64,000 nucleotides of DNA from Acidobacteria bacterium UBA6911. Its GTDB lineage: Bacteria > Acidobacteriota > UBA6911 > RPQK01 > JAJDTT01. Below are positions 5,102-64,000 of the stretch, piece by piece. Where the stretch lies: positions 1,707 through 65,706 of the forward strand of contig CAUZIZ010000006.1 in the NCBI GenBank assembly GCA_963579905.1, read 5' to 3'. Below the pieces are notes generated by a model. The model ran no database searches, was not told the origin of the DNA, and saw only the letters and a list, made by a program, of their open reading frames with translations. Every line of letters starts with the position of its first letter. Position 1 is the first letter of the stretch. A program made the translations under genes and the position numbers.

Positions 5102-5661
5102 CTTTCACTGGACGTATTGAGTGGGCAGTTCAATTGAGGCACAAGGAAGATTGTGCTGCTGTCCGGTCGCTCCTCGAAACCTCAGACATTAGACGAATCG
5201 TTCAAGTTTCAGCTTAGTGCCCCCCAGGAAGCGCTGGCCCCATTCGAGAAAGAAGCCTCAGTGTCCTACGGTAGCATGGGCATCCCTGCCCGTGATGACC
5301 GATCCGTCGAGCCAAGGGCTCGACAATCACGGCCTGGAAGACCGTGCCACGGTTGGGAATCCTGAACCTGGAACCGAATGAAGTTTCAGCTTAGTCCCGC
5401 CCCCGCTGCGCTGCCCCATTCGAGAAAGAAACTTCCGGCTACTGGAGATTTGTGCTGTTGTCCAGCTCTCTCCTCGGAACTTGGCCTCATGTTGCTAACG
5501 GCTCAAGTCGTTCGCGGCTCTGTCGGACTTGACTTCGTAACGCTGGTAGTTCACCCGTTGGCGGCACCTTCGGAGGGCAGGAGACGTGCGACGTTCAGAC
5601 GAATTCTTGGAGTTCAGGTCGGGCTCCTGCTTCGCCGGGGAGGCTCCAACCTCGCGGATTG
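5102..5661. repeat. Intergenic mosaic repeat island A (two H palindromic units and one T unit: H-spacer-H-T)
   Basis: H copies at ~5204-5256 and ~5379-5436 (GAAGTTTCAGCTTAGT...CCCCATTCGAGAAAGAAACTTCC). T unit at ~5492-5577 (TTGCTAACGGCTCAAGTCGTTCGCGGCTCTGTCGGACTTG...GGCACCTTCGGAGG) with the tail GGAGACGTGCGACGTTCAGACGAATTCTT. The island lies between convergent gene ends. Confidence 0.8.
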
Positions 5662-9216: not shown

Positions 9217-9544
9217 TGTGGGCACCCAACCTCAGCAGCAGTTCCGATCCAAAGGGCAGCGATACTACTTCCCTGCCCTTTCTTGTCAGTGCCCCCCCAG
9301 CGGTGCTGCCCCGTTCGAGAAAAGAAACTTCCGGCTACTGGGGATTTGTGCGGCTCTCTCCTCGAAACCTGGGCTCATTTCGCTAACGGCTCAAGTCGTT
9401 CGCGGCTCTGTCGGACTTGGCTTCGTAACGCTGGTAGTTCACCCGTTGGCGGCACCTTCGGAGGACTGGAGACGTGCGACGAATTCTTGAAGTTTCAGCT
9501 TAGTGCAAACAAGTTCTTCCGAACCCGCTCGCATTTCGTTCTCG
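9217..9544. repeat. Mosaic repeat island B (H variant, T unit, partial H; full composite element ~9280-9505, + orientation)
   Basis: T at ~9380-9462 is near-identical to the island A copy. It ends with GAATTCTTGAAGTTTCAGCTTAGTGC, a direct repeat of the H 5' end. Confidence 0.8.
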
Positions 9545-19668: not shown

Positions 19669-20072
19669 CTGGCATTTCACTCCCGACGGCGAGCCCAATC
19701 TGATCGATGCCATCGAACAGGATCGCCCACCATCAACCCTCGGCGATCCAACAGAGCCGCGAACGACTTGAGCCGTTAGCAAAATGAGCCCAGGTTCCGA
19801 GGAGAGAGCCGGACAACTCTTCCCCACGCAGTGGCGCACAAATCCCCAGTAGCCGGAACTTTCTTTCCCGAATGGGGCCAGGGCTTCCTGGGGGCGGGAC
19901 TTACCTGAAACTTCATTGGCAAACGTAGCTTTGGCCTCCAGACCGAAGTATTCCTTCGAGCCTTTGGCTCGGACGGCGGCCTGGAGACCGCCGCCACGGC
20001 CGGGACTCCAAGTTTCCTTCTCGAATGGGGCAGCGCAGCGGGGGGGGCACTAACTTGAAGCTCGGTAGCGGT
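19669..20072. repeat. Mosaic repeat island C (truncated T and two H units, minus orientation)
   Basis: T fragment at 19751-19783 (reverse complement of TTGCTAACGGCTCAAGTCGTTCGCGGCTCTGT). H copies at ~19853-19913 and ~20008-20064. Between convergent genes. Confidence 0.75.
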
Positions 20073-33258: not shown

Positions 33259-33720
33259 CCACGAACCTCCATACAGACAATAGTCTGGGAGCCAAGCGAA
33301 TCCTATCAGCTAGCGACGGCCAATCCTATGGGTATGATGCTGCGACCTTCGACGATCAACCCAAGCTGAAACTTCAAGAATACGTCGCACGTCTCCTGTC
33401 CTTCGAAGGTGCACCAACGGGTGAACTACCAGCGTTACGAAGCCAAGTCCGACAGAGCCGCGAACGACTTGAGCCGTTAGCAAAATGAGCCCAGGTTCCG
33501 AGGAGAGAGCCGGACAACTCTTCCCCACGCAGTGACGCACAAATCCCCAGTAGCCGGAAGTTTCTTTCTCGAATGGGGCAGCACCGCTGGGGAGCCACTA
33601 AGCTGAAGCTTCATTGGGCAGGAGATCATCCAAGGGTCGCCAATGACAGAGCCGTGACTGCGAAGGAGCGGTCCCGGCATACGGATGCCGGAAACAACGA
33701 ACCAAACGGACGGTGGCTGA
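33259..33720. repeat. Mosaic repeat island D: complete T+H composite element (minus, ~33362-33612) plus the left arm of an S element (~33620-33720)
   Basis: Reverse complement of H-T-tail. It ends CATTGGGCAGGAGATCATCCAAGGGTCGCCAATGACAGAGCCGTGACTGCGAAGGAGCGGTCCCGGCATACGGATGCCGG. Confidence 0.8.
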
Positions 33721-45578: not shown

Positions 45579-46297
45579 AGTCTCCTCGGTGGAAGCTAGC
45601 CTAAAACTTGAACGATTCGTCGGAACGTCGGCACGTCTGGACGTCGCACGTCTCTTCTCCCGGGAAAGTGCGGCGAACGGTTCCGACGGAAGCTTCGAAT
45701 GGCGAGGTGATCATGAAGAATCGCCAGATGTCAGAGCCGTGCCCTTCAGGGTTCGGCCCCTGATCGGGGGCCGAACCTGGCAGCTCCGCCTTGGAAGTTT
45801 CCTCCTGAATGATCCAGCTGGGGCGGGACTAAGCTGAAACTTCATTTGGTAGGAGATCATCCAAGAGTCGCCAATGACAGAGCCGTGACTGCGAAGGAGC
45901 GGTCCCGGTATACCGGTGCCGGAAACAACCGACCAAACAGACGGTGACCGATCACATCCCCTTTTGCGGCATGTCCCGATCGGTGATCGGGACCGCTCCT
46001 TTGCAGTCACGGCTCCGTCATTGGCGGTAGCGACAATCACGGCAGACGTAACCGAAGTTTCGTTCTCGAATGGGGCAGCACCGCTGGGGCGGGACTGCCC
46101 TGAAACTTGAGCAGTGAGCAGCGCCGCAAACCGGTGAACTAGCAGTATTACGAAACCAAGTCCAACAGAGCCGCGAACGACTTGAGCCGCTGGCAATTTG
46201 AAGCCAGCTTTCGTGGAAAGAGCCGGACGACAGCAAAATCTCTTCCGCTCTACCGGCTGACATTTCCGCCTTCCAGTTTCCCTTCGCCACACTGAAC
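45579..46297. repeat. Mosaic repeat island E: tail fragment, H, complete S element, H, T, and a diverged copy
   Basis: H(-) at 45794-45843, S at 45871-46024, H(-) at 46050-46108, T(-) at 46128-46196. Between convergent genes. Confidence 0.8.
45871..46024. mobile_element. S element: MITE-like ~154-bp unit with ~37-bp terminal inverted repeats and two internal hairpins
   Basis: Left arm CCAATGACAGAGCCGTGACTGCGAAGGAGCGGTCCCGG. Right arm CGGGACCGCTCCTTTGCAGTCACGGCTCCGTCATTGG, 34/36 complementary. Internal hairpins CCGGTATACCGG and GTCCCGATC-GGT-GATCGGGAC. No ORF. Confidence 0.6.
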
Positions 46298-58447: not shown

Positions 58448-59030
58448 GTATCTTGATAGTGGATGGACGCACAATTCGCGCTCTCCCGACCCTGAAATTT
58501 CATGGGATAGGAAATCATGCAGAAGCAGCCGTTTGACAGAGCCGTGACTGCGAAGGAGTGGTACCGGCATACCGATGCCGGAAGGCAGTGACCCGTGGAC
58601 CTTCTTCCTATGGACTCACCACATGTCCCGATCGATGATCGGGTCCCGCTCCCTCACGGTCACGGCTCTGTATGCACGCCGAAGCAACCGCGCGGCGGGA
58701 TCTTAACCCTTCAAAGCTCCAAGGGCTTTTGCGACACGCTCTATTGTGGATCATTCGAAGTTTTCTTATCGAATTGGGCCAGCGTTTCCTGGAGGCGGGA
58801 CTAACCTGAACCTTCAACCACGAGGAAGCGAAGCAACATTCGCTAGTTGACAGAGCCGTGACTGTCAGGGAGCGGGGCCCGACGGGGCCCATACCCCCCG
58901 ACGCTTCCAGGTTGCAGGGGGTTGCTAGCAATGATCATGGCAGAGACGGTACAAGTTTCTTTCTTAAATGGGGCCAGTACTTCCTGGGGGCCTTACTAAC
59001 CTGAAATTTCGACGTGAATGATCCGAAACG
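58448..59030. repeat. Mosaic repeat island F: S copy (58535-58671), H(-) 58757-58815, diverged S-like 58849-58949, H(-) 58951-59011
   Basis: Same modules as islands D and E. The arms of the S copy pair with two T-G (G-U) wobble positions. Confidence 0.8.
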
Positions 59031-60394: not shown

Positions 60395-60763
60395 CTACCA
60401 TGTGCTCTCTCCAATCCAGACGGTGGCTCCGGTTACGAGCTTGGGAAGTGTCGTCACCAGTTGGTCATCTGGAACGTCCAACAGGAAGGTAGTAGGGGAC
60501 TGCCAATCGTACAGTGCAGCCGTGGACTCCAGTGGCAGCGCAGCCGGCGGACGCGTAAATTCCAGCAGGAGCGGTGCGCTGGCCACCAGAAGTAAGACCA
60601 GTGCAACTGCAGCCGAGTAACGAAACACGGGGAGCATGTATTGCCAGCGAGAAGCACGAGGAGCATTCAACACCTCATGGAAGGAAGGAGTCTGAATCTC
60701 GTCCTCTTCCCGGAGCTGCTTGAACAATTGCTCGATTTCGGTGTCGTCCCACTTAGTGGTCAT
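60395..60763 (-). CDS. Membrane-anchored anti-sigma factor (putative)
   Basis: Overlaps the sigma-gene stop by 11 nt. Single TM helix. 122 aa. Confidence 0.6.
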   Translation of the reverse strand: MTTKWDDTEIEQLFKQLREEDEIQTPSFHEVLNAPRASRWQYMLPVFRYSAAVALVLLLVASAPLLLEFTRPPAALPLESTAALYDWQSPTTFLLDVPDDQLVTTLPKLVTGATVWIGESTW

Positions 60764-61271
60764 GGTGTAGTCCTGATTTCTCGATTTCTTCCTTCAGCCT
60801 GTTCTTACCGCGATGGTAGTGCGTTCGCGCGGATCCCACCGAAACTCCCATCACCCCTGCTGCTGCTTCTACGGTGAGGTCGTGGTAGAAGACGAGCTCT
60901 AGTACCTGCCGCTGCCGTTGTGACAGATCGGAGAGGATCTGCTGCAGACGCGTTCGCAACTGAGATCGATAGATACTCTCTACAGAGGCCGGTCTGACCG
61001 TCGGCAGCTCGGTGGGGGCTACCTGTAGGTGTCGCAAGCTTCGAAGGAGCTTCCGCTTCGCCTTACTGGCAGTGTTGCGAACGGCTGAAAACAGCCAGGT
61101 CTTGAAAATGGATCGCTCCTCGAAGGAAGCACTTCTCTCCAAAACGTTGAGATAGACGGTCTGAAGCACGTCCTCCGCTTCGTACCGGTCTCCGTCGCAA
61201 CAGAAGATAGCCCAACGGTATGCCGACGTATGATGATTTTCTAGTAGCATTTTGAGCTTAGCCTGCTCCAT
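60753..61271 (-). CDS. ECF-subfamily RNA polymerase sigma-70 factor
   Basis: Sigma region 2 (YRWAIFCCDGDRYEAEDVLQTVYLNV) and region 4 HTH (LTVEAAAGVMGVSVGSARTHYHRGKNRL). Confidence 0.9.
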   Translation of the reverse strand: MEQAKLKMLLENHHTSAYRWAIFCCDGDRYEAEDVLQTVYLNVLERSASFEERSIFKTWLFSAVRNTASKAKRKLLRSLRHLQVAPTELPTVRPASVESIYRSQLRTRLQQILSDLSQRQRQVLELVFYHDLTVEAAAGVMGVSVGSARTHYHRGKNRLKEEIEKSGLHHDH

Positions 61272-61482
61272 TACTTTCAGAAATTACTCGACATCCACTG
61301 TCAACAGCATTAGTCCCATCAGCAAAGGTTTTATATGACACGTCTCCTTCAAATATATAGTGGTGGCTACACTTTCGGAGTCTAACCAGAGCCGCGATCG
61401 GGAACGCGATTCAATTGGCTAGTCCGGGGAATCGGTTTGAATTTGGACCGGCATAGGCCGACCAAGGTCCCACGCCCTACCG

Positions 61483-61560
61483 CGTGATCTTCGTAGGGTG
61501 GGCACTCCTGCCCGTCGTTTTAAACGACGGGCAGGAGTGCCCACCCTACGAAGATCACGA
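61483..61560. repeat. Perfect 78-bp palindrome (39-bp arms)
   Basis: CGTGATCTTCGTAGGGTGGGCACTCCTGCCCGTCGTTTT|AAAACGACGGGCAGGAGTGCCCACCCTACGAAGATCACG. The two arms are exact reverse complements of each other. Confidence 0.9.
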
Positions 61561-61596
61561 CTGATTAAGACATGATCCGCGTCCAATTCGGATAAA

Positions 61597-64000
61597 CTAG
61601 AGCGCTGAACCTCTTTCCAGGAAGGCAAACAAATCGACCAGATCGGTGAGGCCCATTGTGTCGAGCAGGTCCTCGGGCATGATGGAGATCTGAGAAACTC
61701 GCTTCTCGAGGATATCTTTCTTGTCCAGCTTGATCCGCTCTCCGTTGGCGGTGATCAGGATAAGGCTGATTTCGGATTCACCTGCGACCATGCCGGTCAC
61801 GGTCTCATTTTTCTTCAAATCCACCACGACACCAGTGTATTGATCGGAGATCACGCGGGAGGGATACATGATGGATTCCAGGATCTCGCCCCGTCGGAAC
61901 CTCTTGACCGCCGTCGACAGGTCGGGTCCACCCCCTCGCCCCTCATTCCCGAAGACGTGACAGTTGGCGCATTTGGCCCGGCGAAAGACGATGCGTCCCC
62001 TGTCCACGTCACCATCCTCGTAGCTCATCGGACTGAATTCAAAATAACCGTTGAGTTCCTCGAAACTCATCTGTGACAAAGGATTATGCTCTTCTACTTT
62101 CTCACTATTCACCTCTGCCATGAGCTCCCGAGCCCGTTGAGCCTGTTCCGCTAGATAGCGTTCCTTCCCATCCTCCGCCCGCCTGCGCTCGTCTGGCTCC
62201 AGAAGTGCGAGCGTGTCCTGCCACAGATTCTCGATGAAGCCTACCATGCTGGCCGCGCCCGCTATTTCTCGTCCCCGCTCGAACCAATCCACCAATCGCT
62301 CACGCAACTGGGGGTTCCAACCATTGCGGATCTCACGGAGGGCGTAGACCGTGCTGATCTCGTCTTCCTGGGAGCGCCCGGGCTGAAGCTGATCGAGCAG
62401 GGCTTGGATCGATCCTTCAGGCTGCATATAGGCCAGGAGGAACTCCAACTCGCGGTCGAGCAAATGCTTCTTCGAGGGATAACGGTTCAGCAACCGAGGT
62501 CCTACCTTAGAGATGAACGGGACACGGTGGTCTTTGCCCACCGCGGGATCGCGGACCAAGGCCAATTGGCATACCCGGAGATAGCTGTGAAGCAAAGCAT
62601 CGTCTGGCAGGGAATCGCTGTACTCAAGCAGCTTCCCGAAAATGGAGTCCGCGTCGTCGCGGGTGGTCTGAGTATGGACCAGTGCCAGCAGTCCTTCCAA
62701 GGCGCGATGGGGATGTTGCTTGATGCTGTCACCGAGCACCATGGAAGCCCAGGAATCCCGGGGCAAGCGCTGAAGGGCCAGTCGAGCCGCGTAGCGGACG
62801 AAGCGGTCCGGCTGGTCCAGCAGAGCGAACAACCGCGTCAGAAGCAGGTCCTCCTGCTCGATCTGGGTATCGTTGCGGAGGCCGCTTCGGAGCAAGGCCT
62901 CGCAGGCCCTTCTGAGCACCAATGGATCTCCGTCCTGGAGGCTCTGCAGCAGGATCGAATAAGTGTGTTTCAGGGCATGGGTTCCCAGCAGCAGCACCGA
63001 AGCAGCCCGCGCCTCCGGGGACTCGTCCGTTGCCAAGGAGCGCAAGAGCTCCACATCGGGCCGTGGTCCCATGACTTGCAGCAGTTCCAGGGCCCGGAGC
63101 CTGGTTCGAGGGGCGGCCTGTTTGTCGCTCACGACTTTGAGGAGCTCTGTCCCCCAGGCTGCGCCCAGTTTTTCGCGCACACCTGAGATTCGGTGGCGCC
63201 CCCAGGCCGAGCGGTGCATGGGTTGCTCCAGGGCTGCCGCAAGGCCCGTTGTCTTGTCTCTGGGGCTGTTCCGATCCGTCCCTTTCCAGGTAACCCGGTA
63301 GAGTCCGCCAGTCGTGGACCTTCCTCCAGTCGCGAAGTAGAGAAAACCGTCTGGGCCGATGTCCAGATCGGTCACATTGAGGGGGTGCCCCTGAACAAAA
63401 TCGATGCTGGAACTACTGAAAGAAGCCCCCTTCTCTTTGGGGAAACTCACCAGGATTCGGCCCCGGGACCAATCGCCCAGGAAGAGCGCTCCTCGGTACT
63501 TCTCCGGATAAGTGTTGTGGTGGTAGAAGGCGATACCGACCGGGGAGCCTCGCCCCAGACTTTCAATTCCGGGGAGAGTGTCAGGGTAGGATTCGGGGAA
63601 CTTTCCCGACCCTGTTCGCCAGCCATAGTCGGCTCCGGGCGTGCAGTGGAGAACGCGGATGGGGCGATACCAGGGCAGCCCGAAGTCCCACTCCATGTCC
63701 GAATCGAAGGTGAAAATCTCGCCTTGCTCGTCGATGTCAAAATCGAAGGCATTGCGAAAACCGCCGTTGACCTGGCTCCATTGGTTCTGGTCCAGCTCCA
63801 GACGGTTCAGGGTGCCAGCAGGTGCCCAGACGGTATTGGCGTGTCCCCTGGGGTCCAGGTACCGGTCCAGGAGATGGTCTTCCTGGAGCCCCCGGGAGGG
63901 TGAGAGGGGATCGATGGAGACGTCGGGGAAGGAATGATTCCCATACATGACATAGAGGCTTCCGTCGATGCCTGTCCGAATGGCGTGCGGGCCATGTTCG
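61597..64000 (-). CDS. PVC-type membrane-bound dehydrogenase-domain + HEAT-repeat + C-terminal heme-binding (CxxCH) protein; N-terminus beyond the window
   Basis: C-terminal KCANCHVFGNEGRGGGPDLS cytochrome c motif. The dehydrogenase-like propeller region resembles the 15112..19668 protein. Confidence 0.85.
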   Translation of the reverse strand, partial: EHGPHAIRTGIDGSLYVMYGNHSFPDVSIDPLSPSRGLQEDHLLDRYLDPRGHANTVWAPAGTLNRLELDQNQWSQVNGGFRNAFDFDIDEQGEIFTFDSDMEWDFGLPWYRPIRVLHCTPGADYGWRTGSGKFPESYPDTLPGIESLGRGSPVGIAFYHHNTYPEKYRGALFLGDWSRGRILVSFPKEKGASFSSSSIDFVQGHPLNVTDLDIGPDGFLYFATGGRSTTGGLYRVTWKGTDRNSPRDKTTGLAAALEQPMHRSAWGRHRISGVREKLGAAWGTELLKVVSDKQAAPRTRLRALELLQVMGPRPDVELLRSLATDESPEARAASVLLLGTHALKHTYSILLQSLQDGDPLVLRRACEALLRSGLRNDTQIEQEDLLLTRLFALLDQPDRFVRYAARLALQRLPRDSWASMVLGDSIKQHPHRALEGLLALVHTQTTRDDADSIFGKLLEYSDSLPDDALLHSYLRVCQLALVRDPAVGKDHRVPFISKVGPRLLNRYPSKKHLLDRELEFLLAYMQPEGSIQALLDQLQPGRSQEDEISTVYALREIRNGWNPQLRERLVDWFERGREIAGAASMVGFIENLWQDTLALLEPDERRRAEDGKERYLAEQAQRARELMAEVNSEKVEEHNPLSQMSFEELNGYFEFSPMSYEDGDVDRGRIVFRRAKCANCHVFGNEGRGGGPDLSTAVKRFRRGEILESIMYPSRVISDQYTGVVVDLKKNETVTGMVAGESEISLILITANGERIKLDKKDILEKRVSQISIMPEDLLDTMGLTDLVDLFAFLERGSAL

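Follow-up and report, generated by a model that had tools for sequence, protein, structure and literature searches.

A perfect 77-bp palindrome upstream of an ECF sigma operon, probably a head-to-head doublet of a GTAG-tagged REP unit

The window (the whole 64-kb stretch of DNA that was analysed) ends within a minus-strand gene for a PVC-type "membrane-bound dehydrogenase-like" protein. Its 3′ part (61597..64000) is present before the window end cuts it off; the domains are 3keto-disac_hyd, DUF7133, HEAT_2, and cytochrome c, and full-length copies are 1152 aa long. The neighboring gene, also on the minus strand, encodes an ECF sigma factor of 172 aa (60753..61271) and is the first of an operon in which genes for proteins of 122 aa and 155 aa follow. 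Between them lies an intergenic region of 325 nt that holds a palindrome, which is extragenic and downstream of an ORF. The palindrome starts 37 nt past the stop codon (61597-61599) of the dehydrogenase-like gene and lies 212 nt upstream of the sigma start at 61271, so the position given in an earlier note on this DNA (3′ of the minus-strand gene ending at 61597 and ∼210 bp upstream of the ECF sigma gene) is correct for the gene and close to the measured distance. The genes on both sides are chromosomal and of housekeeping type.

Two parts of the intergenic region can be distinguished, both read on the minus strand. The block directly before the sigma gene (61272..61375) is kept in relatives that do not have the palindrome and is presumably the promoter or leader of the ECF-sigma operon itself. 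The remainder (61376..61596) is a lineage-specific spacer around the palindrome, and relatives at 74-88% protein identity have nothing homologous to it at the nucleotide level.

By a repeat search of the window, positions 61483-61559 form a perfect inverted repeat of 77 bp. The left arm (61483..61520, plus strand, 38 nt) is 100% complementary to 61522-61559; the right arm (61522..61559, plus strand, 38 nt) is its exact reverse complement; and one unpaired base, a T on the plus strand at 61521, marks the center of symmetry. Read from its outer end, the left arm consists of a 10-nt outer extension (CGTGATCTTC), a 24-nt REP unit, and a 4-nt inner GTTT. The palindrome had been described as perfect, 78 bp long, with 39-bp arms and no spacer: The perfection stands, and the length has to be corrected to 77 bp, with arms of 38 nt and a 1-nt center. 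The boundary position 61560 is polymorphic. In the window it is an A, which does not pair with G61482 and leaves the arms at 38 nt, whereas in three other assemblies (L001, L014, and L024; see below) it is a C that pairs with G61482, giving arms of 39 nt and a palindrome of 79 bp. By parsimony, the C in all three suggests that, in the window, the outermost pair of the palindrome was lost.

The 77-mer folds with −79.8 kcal/mol as RNA (z = −17.9) and with −52.0 kcal/mol as DNA (z = −17.8). The core of the arm, 26 nt long, matches the window twice, both times at the arms themselves, and has no match in 100 shuffles, which excludes a palindrome arisen by chance. Apart from the two arms, the 64-kb window holds no further copy of arm or core with up to three mismatches, and no other inverted repeat of at least 20 nt at 100% complementarity is found in it. 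Rfam searches gave only sub-threshold matches of the palindrome to generic miRNA-precursor hairpin models (52.7 bits, with 77 required) and, over the whole window, no family at the gathering score. A spurious 69-aa ORF that crosses the palindrome has no match among 5.8 billion proteins.

A second and much more abundant repeat is also present in the window: A unit of 58-75 nt occurs ten times, in pairs that enclose variable hairpin "cargo." As for a possible framing of the palindrome by this unit, no copy lies within 400 nt, and between 61,000 and 61,700 there is only a negative-scoring match of 16 nt (61027-61042, E = 43).

No T or U run follows the hairpin on the sense strand, where the sequence is CGGTAGGGCG. 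A scan for promoters and terminators returned no sigma-70-like promoter and no sense-strand terminator; the only terminator-like sites it reported are at the inner hairpins, on the antisense (plus) strand. What we find is thus a perfect and very stable palindrome with no U-tract, in agreement with the view expressed previously that it is not a canonical intrinsic terminator.

The palindrome is spanned, with collinear unique flanks, in three other metagenome assemblies: ENA ERZ27247690 k141_666586 (L001), with three differences from the window in 13,248 nt; ENA ERZ27247695 k141_1248428 (L024), which is 99.63% identical to the window; and JGI 3300032278 Ga0310345_10000663 (L014/L023), with 28 differences in 3,618 nt. 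These haplotypes have diverged by 0.02-0.77% in the flanks, and all of them carry a perfect palindrome. At a divergence of 0.77%, the chance of seeing no change at all in 76 arm positions is about 0.56, and the shared perfection by itself therefore says little. More telling are the changes within the arms. Those of L014, a single assembly, differ from the window only at 61504 (A>G) and 61538 (T>C), two positions placed exactly symmetrically around 61521; under independent mutation, a mirrored complementary pair of this kind has a probability of about 4-8e-4. The change converts an A-T pair of the small within-unit hairpin into a weaker G:T pair and leaves the long hairpin intact, so it is the long hairpin that is being conserved or copied.

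Going by these sequence comparisons, the palindrome is not recent relative to the divergence of the population, and its arms appear to evolve in concert. The earlier note had offered recent origin or active maintenance as explanations of the perfection. The first does not fit a palindrome common to haplotypes that differ by up to 0.77% in their flanks, and the second gains support from the mirror-image substitutions in the diverged haplotype. Template switching at inverted repeats is known to turn quasipalindromes into perfect ones and to homogenize their arms (PMC7202029, PMC8604942). From the one polymorphism, in one assembly, we infer that hairpin-templated correction would be the simplest mechanism for the symmetry.

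A scan for GTAG-tagged hairpins shows that both arms contain GTAGGGTGGGCACTCCTGCCCGTC. The REP unit of 24 nt consists of the GTAG tag, a stem (GGTGGGCA), a 4-nt loop (CTCC), and the returning stem (TGCCCGTC); two of the eight stem pairs are wobbles, one G:T and one T:G. Unit 1 (61493..61516) is on the plus strand, and unit 2 (61526..61549), identical to it and inverted, is on the minus strand with its GTAG outside. The two units, 9 nt apart, constitute a head-to-head (HH) homodimer. Abutting the left arm is a candidate for a decayed third unit (GTAGGGCGTGGG..., 61446..61480, minus strand), a weak match with a local alignment score of 19, which ∼3.5% of random window segments equal (p about 0.035). 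Another unit of the same family, GTAGCATGGGCATCCCTGCCCGTG, is located at 5271-5294, which gives two family loci in the 64-kb window (61493/61549 and 5271-5294). By a generic scan, the window has three GTAG-tagged hairpins compared with about 1.2 in shuffles, a number barely above expectation. A REP of this class is a unit of 20-40 bp with the GTAG unpaired at one end. GTAG-tagged REPs are described as having a terminal GTAG, stems of 6-9 bp, short loops, and frequent G:T pairs (PMC3733652, a paper that distinguishes 24 families), and they are reported from Planctomycetes and the PVC group, including Rhodopirellula baltica and Planctomyces spp.

The unit also recurs in other genomes. In a scan of one GTDB genome per species, the exact 21-mer GTAGGGTGGGCACTCCTGCCC is found in 10 genomes or loci, with a chance expectation that we estimate at about 0.3 (a stated 596 Gb, both strands, divided by 4^21). 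Most of the hosts are Planctomycetota. Four are Schlesneria MAGs and two are Acidobacteria; Planctomyces, Pirellulales, "Planctomycetota," and a Neisseriaceae MAG contribute one each. A few further loci with the unit come from the JGI metagenome collection and IMG/VR. Counting matches to GTAGGRYGGGCRCTCYTGCCCGTC with up to four substitutions, the family comprises 29 units in 17 loci, several of them within 8 kb in Schlesneria (L010, L011, and L013). The loci where the unit itself or a variant within the same limit is found are unrelated to one another and belong to MAGs of Schlesneria, Planctomyces, and Pirellulales and to a near relative. For these other members, a crude stop-to-stop ORF check of extragenic position gave noisy results. 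All nine close pairs in the family are HH, with GTAG outside and gaps of 9-71 nt. One of them is in L015, the nearest relative examined (an 88% orthologue), where an HH doublet folding with −68.1 kcal/mol lies at an unrelated place and has the same 9-nt gap. A literature search with 12-mer motifs of the unit matched only unrelated primer sequences, and no peptides encoded by the unit were found in the supplements of PMC3733652. That the sequence might be a common repeated terminator in this genome had been named as a possible refutation. A common repeat it is at the level of the family, with members in other planctomycete genomes and at 5271-5294 of the window, but identical copies are not numerous in its vicinity.

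We compared the locus with those of orthologues of the upstream gene, together with their flanks, at 88, 88, 87, 80, 80, and 74% protein identity. In blastn, the homology breaks off at the stop codon and picks up again where the sigma promoter block starts (query positions 325-362): at ∼61376 in L018, at 61354-61356 in L016, L017, and L019, and at 61339 in L020. The promoter block is 81-92% identical to that of L016-L020. The 220-240 nt that include the palindrome have no counterpart in the relatives, none of which has the palindrome. The contents of their spacers vary widely: a PhdYeFM/PIN toxin-antitoxin pair in L017; a DDE transposase in L019, with another GTAG...CTAC hairpin element directly past the stop codon; a group II intron reverse transcriptase and a RAYT-like Y1 transposase in L015; an unknown ORF in L016; and a long imperfect hairpin in L020. 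The spacer of L018 is only 105 nt long and has no inserted gene. The palindrome therefore lies within an insertion hotspot of this clade. It is present in all haplotypes at 99% identity or above and missing in relatives at 88% protein identity or below; the divergence of the spacer in the six orthologous loci is too great for a precise empty site to be reconstructed.

By tblastn, no Y1/RAYT transposase gene was found in the window or in any of the REP-bearing loci fetched. On NF047646 ("REP-associated tyrosine transposase"), the Y1 gene in the L015 spacer reaches 74.5 bits, which is below the NCBIfam cut-off of 80, and the GTAG hairpin that flanks this RAYT-like gene is a different one, GTAGCAGAGCCCGCTTCAGCGGGCT.

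REPINs are inverted doublets of REP units that form a hairpin and in which compensatory changes are common (PMC3116915). We regard it as probable that the palindrome is an HH homodimer of a GTAG-tagged REP unit, a REPIN-like doublet from a family spread through Planctomycetota, situated in a hypervariable, insertion-prone spacer. Four observations lead to this reading: the anatomy of the unit, the recurrence of HH doublets elsewhere, the absence of the palindrome from the orthologous spacer of relatives, and its persistence in perfect form across haplotypes up to 0.77% diverged, with one mirrored pair of substitutions in one of them. Of the roles proposed before, a hairpin-type recombination or transposition site comes closest, in view of the GTAG-tagged REP arms and the head-to-head REPIN architecture.

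The palindrome would then have arrived as a REP or REPIN insertion, or descend from one, its single-stranded DNA hairpin being handled by a RAYT-type Y1 (HUH) transposase. The identity of the arms may since have been kept by hairpin-templated correction, that is, by template switching within the molecule, or "quasipalindrome" conversion, as the DNA is replicated: A base changed in one arm would be copied to the other, and the symmetry could have spread 10-11 nt past the REP units in the same manner. Transcription of the upstream gene would yield an RNA hairpin of 37-38 bp, probably either a 3′-end barrier that blocks 3′ exonucleases or a processing site and substrate for a double-strand-specific RNase. 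Such a hairpin might partly insulate or uncouple the sigma operon, as a by-product and not as the reason for the existence of the palindrome. Any role at the RNA level is something we purely infer.

Another possibility, to which we give a low chance, is local palindromization, in which one REP unit, together with the unique sequence beside it, gave rise to an inverted copy in place, by fold-back or template-switch replication and with no transposase involved. The arms themselves have features that agree with such an origin. The symmetry continues past the GTAG tags for another 10-11 nt (GCGTGATCTTC) and for 4 nt inside the units, and neither stretch is found in any other family member; given that the mirrored outer 10-11 nt are unshared, a mobile unit as long as the full 38-nt arm is not demonstrable. 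Elsewhere in the family, the doublets are heterodimers with imperfect pairing, typically of one unit with a CTCC loop and one with a CTCT loop, and their flanks do not pair. In addition, the exact 24-mer is a single locus in the JGI metagenome that carries the organism of the window. On the other hand, all close pairs, in eight independent loci, are HH, and the doublet of L015 has the identical 9-nt gap; geometry so constant indicates that the doublet is a recurrent architecture of the family and not a one-off accident. Template switching is, moreover, already the maintenance step in the REPIN-like explanation, and local palindromization differs from that explanation only on the origin of the doublet.

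A more ambitious claim, which we consider rather doubtful, concerns what keeps the arms identical and what the homodimer is. The arms may be identical through ongoing hairpin-templated conversion or through selection for a fully Watson-Crick 38-bp duplex, as a cruciform or a dsRNA processing site, and the homodimer might be a "master" REPIN, at present able to transpose, that belongs to a planctomycete REP/RAYT system not yet described. Were ongoing conversion or duplex selection true, the locus would be a natural, population-level record of concerted evolution in a bacterial palindrome.

An RNA hairpin under host selection is plausible as a side-effect of the palindrome but unlikely as its explanation. 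The proposal would be that pairing is selected in a U-tract-independent terminator, an mRNA 3′ stabilizer, an RNase III site, or an insulator. In its favor, the hairpin is extremely stable (−79.8 kcal/mol) and lies on the transcribed strand, 37 nt past a stop codon; the mirrored substitution retains pairing; and REPs are mostly downstream of ORFs and have been proposed to be RNA elements (PMC3733652). Unrelated strong hairpins follow the same stop codon in three relatives (z = −4.7 in L020, −2.7 in L019, and −3.3 in L015), but the other three have no significant structure there (z = −0.2 in L018, +0.7 in L017, and −1.9 in L016), and a hairpin is thus not required at this position. The lack of a U-tract also counts against this proposal, as does the pairing itself: Selection on RNA structure would tolerate G:U pairs or mismatches and does not predict 38 Watson-Crick pairs out of 38.

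It is very improbable that the palindrome is a protein-binding operator or a cruciform site that regulates the ECF-sigma operon, although it is palindromic and located upstream of a regulator operon. It lies >100 nt upstream of the conserved promoter block, and its sequence belongs to a dispersed repeat family found beside unrelated genes. Every relative that keeps the promoter block and the operon lacks the palindrome and has unrelated DNA in its place; the palindrome therefore does not belong to the conserved regulatory parts of the sigma operon, and the operator role suggested in the earlier note does not hold. Known operators are far shorter than 77 bp.

Finally, we give practically no credence to an assembly or sequencing artefact, such as a chimeric or fold-back read, a concern that had been raised at the outset: The palindrome is spanned with unique, collinear flanks and natural SNP variation around it in four independent assemblies from differing samples and pipelines, among them k141 MEGAHIT contigs built with k-mers that exceed the length of the whole palindrome. 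What could be taken as signs of an artefact are the breaks seen elsewhere. Two Logan contigs assembled at k=31 (L002 and L003) begin exactly 10 nt from the center of the palindrome; this is the first k-mer not common to both 39-nt arms, and a break at exactly that point is predicted for a true palindrome at k=31. One JGI contig (L025) ends inside the left arm and continues as poly-G junk, a sign that the hairpin disturbs sequencing and not proof of an artefact. In practical terms, the palindrome breaks k=31 assemblies and derails Illumina reads, and this matters for the quality of MAGs.

A phage or plasmid hairpin site (telomere resolution, cos, or ori) was likewise considered and rejected, as the palindrome has no blastn match among 50,697 phage records and 72,556 plasmid records and its neighbors are chromosomal.

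On the REPIN-like reading, the palindrome would be small selfish or structural DNA of an ordinary kind, though unusually pristine, and notable only as a perfect homodimer that evolves symmetrically. If that reading is right, the locus is a tidy example and not a discovery, and it adds an uncultured marine mesopelagic lineage, which we take as a planctomycete, to the hosts of GTAG-tagged REP doublets; one cluster member bears a TARA_112_MES name. That natural haplotypes have diverged and yet retain a perfect palindrome of 77-79 bp, with symmetric changes in it, bears on how REPIN hairpins are maintained and on the tolerance of bacteria for short perfect palindromes.

Several known systems resemble the palindrome in part. 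Like a Rho-independent terminator, it is a GC-rich hairpin just past a stop codon; unlike one, it has no U-tract, its stem is ∼4× longer than those usually seen, and it is a member of a family of dispersed repeats. Quasipalindrome template-switch mutagenesis (PMC7202029, PMC8604942) fits the mirrored changes at 61504 and 61538 and the passage from imperfect to perfect repeats. It is, however, a mutational process and not a family of elements, and one natural polymorphism is what suggests it here.

The REPINs of Pseudomonas fluorescens SBW25 (Bertels & Rainey 2011, PMC3116915) share with the palindrome the inverted REP doublet, the prediction of one long hairpin in single-stranded DNA or RNA, and compensatory or mirrored change between the two sides, which for the palindrome amounts to one pair in L014, a single assembly. 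They differ in being about 100 bp long with a spacer of roughly 40-70 nt, compared with a gap of 9 nt between the units here, and in having hundreds of copies and a flanking cognate RAYT, whereas the palindrome has no cognate RAYT in the sequence examined.

The closest resemblance is to the HH dimers of GTAG-tagged REPs (Di Nocera, De Gregorio & Rocco 2013, PMC3733652). HH is given there as the commonest arrangement of these REPs, in some cases with spacers of 1-2 bp, as in GTAG-17 of Opitutus terrae. The units of such dimers and those of the palindrome are alike in their GTAG, GC-rich stem, short loop, and G:T pairs; in both, the units are inverted, with GTAG outside, and lie very close together; and both are extragenic, downstream of an ORF, among unidirectional genes, and in a host of the PVC group. 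In most families of that account heterodimers predominate, which has been suggested to protect them from hairpin-cleaving enzymes. The palindrome differs from the dimers described there in being a perfect homodimer, in which pairing continues beyond the units to give arms of 38-39 nt.

The palindrome lies in an intergenic spacer (window 61272-61596) that separates the dehydrogenase-like gene from the ECF-sigma operon and is a hotspot for insertions within this clade. In the orthologous spacers of four relatives (L015:13474-17300, L016:13444-14580, L017:12999-14153, and L019:13456-15424) we find, respectively, a RAYT-like (REP-associated tyrosine transposase) Y1 transposase together with a group II intron RT; an unknown 99-aa ORF; a PhdYeFM/PIN toxin-antitoxin pair; and a DDE transposase with a hairpin element directly 3′ of the stop codon. 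The sigma operon is missing from the 10 kb downstream in L015. The same dehydrogenase-like stop codon in a further relative, L020 (74% identity), is directly followed by another, distinct hairpin, a long and imperfect one (CCCTTGTCCTTGCCC / GGGCAAGGACAAGGG; L020:13451-13600; -65.7 kcal/mol, z = -4.7).

The RAYT-like gene of L015 (15833-16567, plus strand) was called at 228 aa, and its start seems to have been placed too late. Read from an upstream ATG, the protein has 244 aa and the N-terminus MARQLRIEYPGATYHV, and it scores 74.5 bits rather than 66.9 against the REP-associated tyrosine transposase model NF047646, whose cut-off is 80. A different hairpin, AGCCCGC-TTCA-GCGGGCT, occurs twice in inverted orientation approximately 150-340 nt 5′ of this gene, and one of the copies is adjoined by a GTAG tag.

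The window also contains a second, abundant intergenic repeat, whose conserved unit of ~58-75 nt (CCCCAGTAGCCGGAAGTTTCTTTCTCGAATGGGGC..CTGGGGGCGGGACTAAGCTGAAACTTCATTGG) is closed by the 8-bp inverted repeat GAAGTTTC/GAAACTTC. Units are found on the minus strand at 5196-5269, 5370-5445, and 9274-9342 and on the plus strand at 19845-19923, 20003-20072, 33546-33623, 45788-45855, 46046-46120, 58751-58826, and 58943-59020; outside the window, they occur in two relatives (L015:99-169 and L018:16150-16217) and in a JGI haplotype of the palindrome locus (L014:1334-1401). The units are mostly paired, each pair flanking 100-240 nt of variable "cargo": a REP doublet (L015:157-331 and window 5241-5387), a long GTAG...CTAC hairpin (window 19907-20027), a hairpin with arms of ~45 nt (window 45836-46072), or conserved non-hairpin sequence (window 9312-9496 and 33368-33575). 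The repeat matches nothing in Rfam, and its range is limited to the source lineage and close relatives.

One such bracketed cargo segment houses the window's second unit of the palindrome's own REP family, GTAGCATGGGCATCCCTGCCCGTG (5271-5294, plus strand). A decayed partner in inverted orientation seems to lie ~22 nt from this unit, with a small hairpin between the two.

Assemblies break at the palindrome. A contig from JGI 3300032820 (Ga0310342_100003515; L025:6380-6490) gives way to poly-G junk inside the left arm, and two Logan k=31 contigs (L002 and L003) have their position 1 exactly 10 nt from the palindrome center, a practical caution for MAG assembly near REP doublets. The palindrome is also crossed by a 69-aa TTG-start ORF (window 61419-61628, minus strand; RDLRRVGTPARRLKRRAGVPTLRRSR) that could be misannotated as a gene but is almost certainly not one. 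Pfam gave no match to this ORF, and 5.8 billion proteins included no homolog.

As for the source organism, one of the proteins that cluster at 90% identity with the upstream dehydrogenase-like protein is named TARA_112_MES_0.22-3, which suggests a marine mesopelagic planctomycete.

The exact REP 21-mer GTAGGGTGGGCACTCCTGCCC is also present in two Acidobacteria genomes and one Neisseriaceae MAG (L004:747-770, L006:1974-1997, and L008:3943-3966). One of the two Acidobacteria loci is on an 882-kb contig, and the Neisseriaceae copy is embedded in an AT-rich tandem repeat. These occurrences could reflect an old REP type shared among the lineages, convergence, or horizontal transfer.
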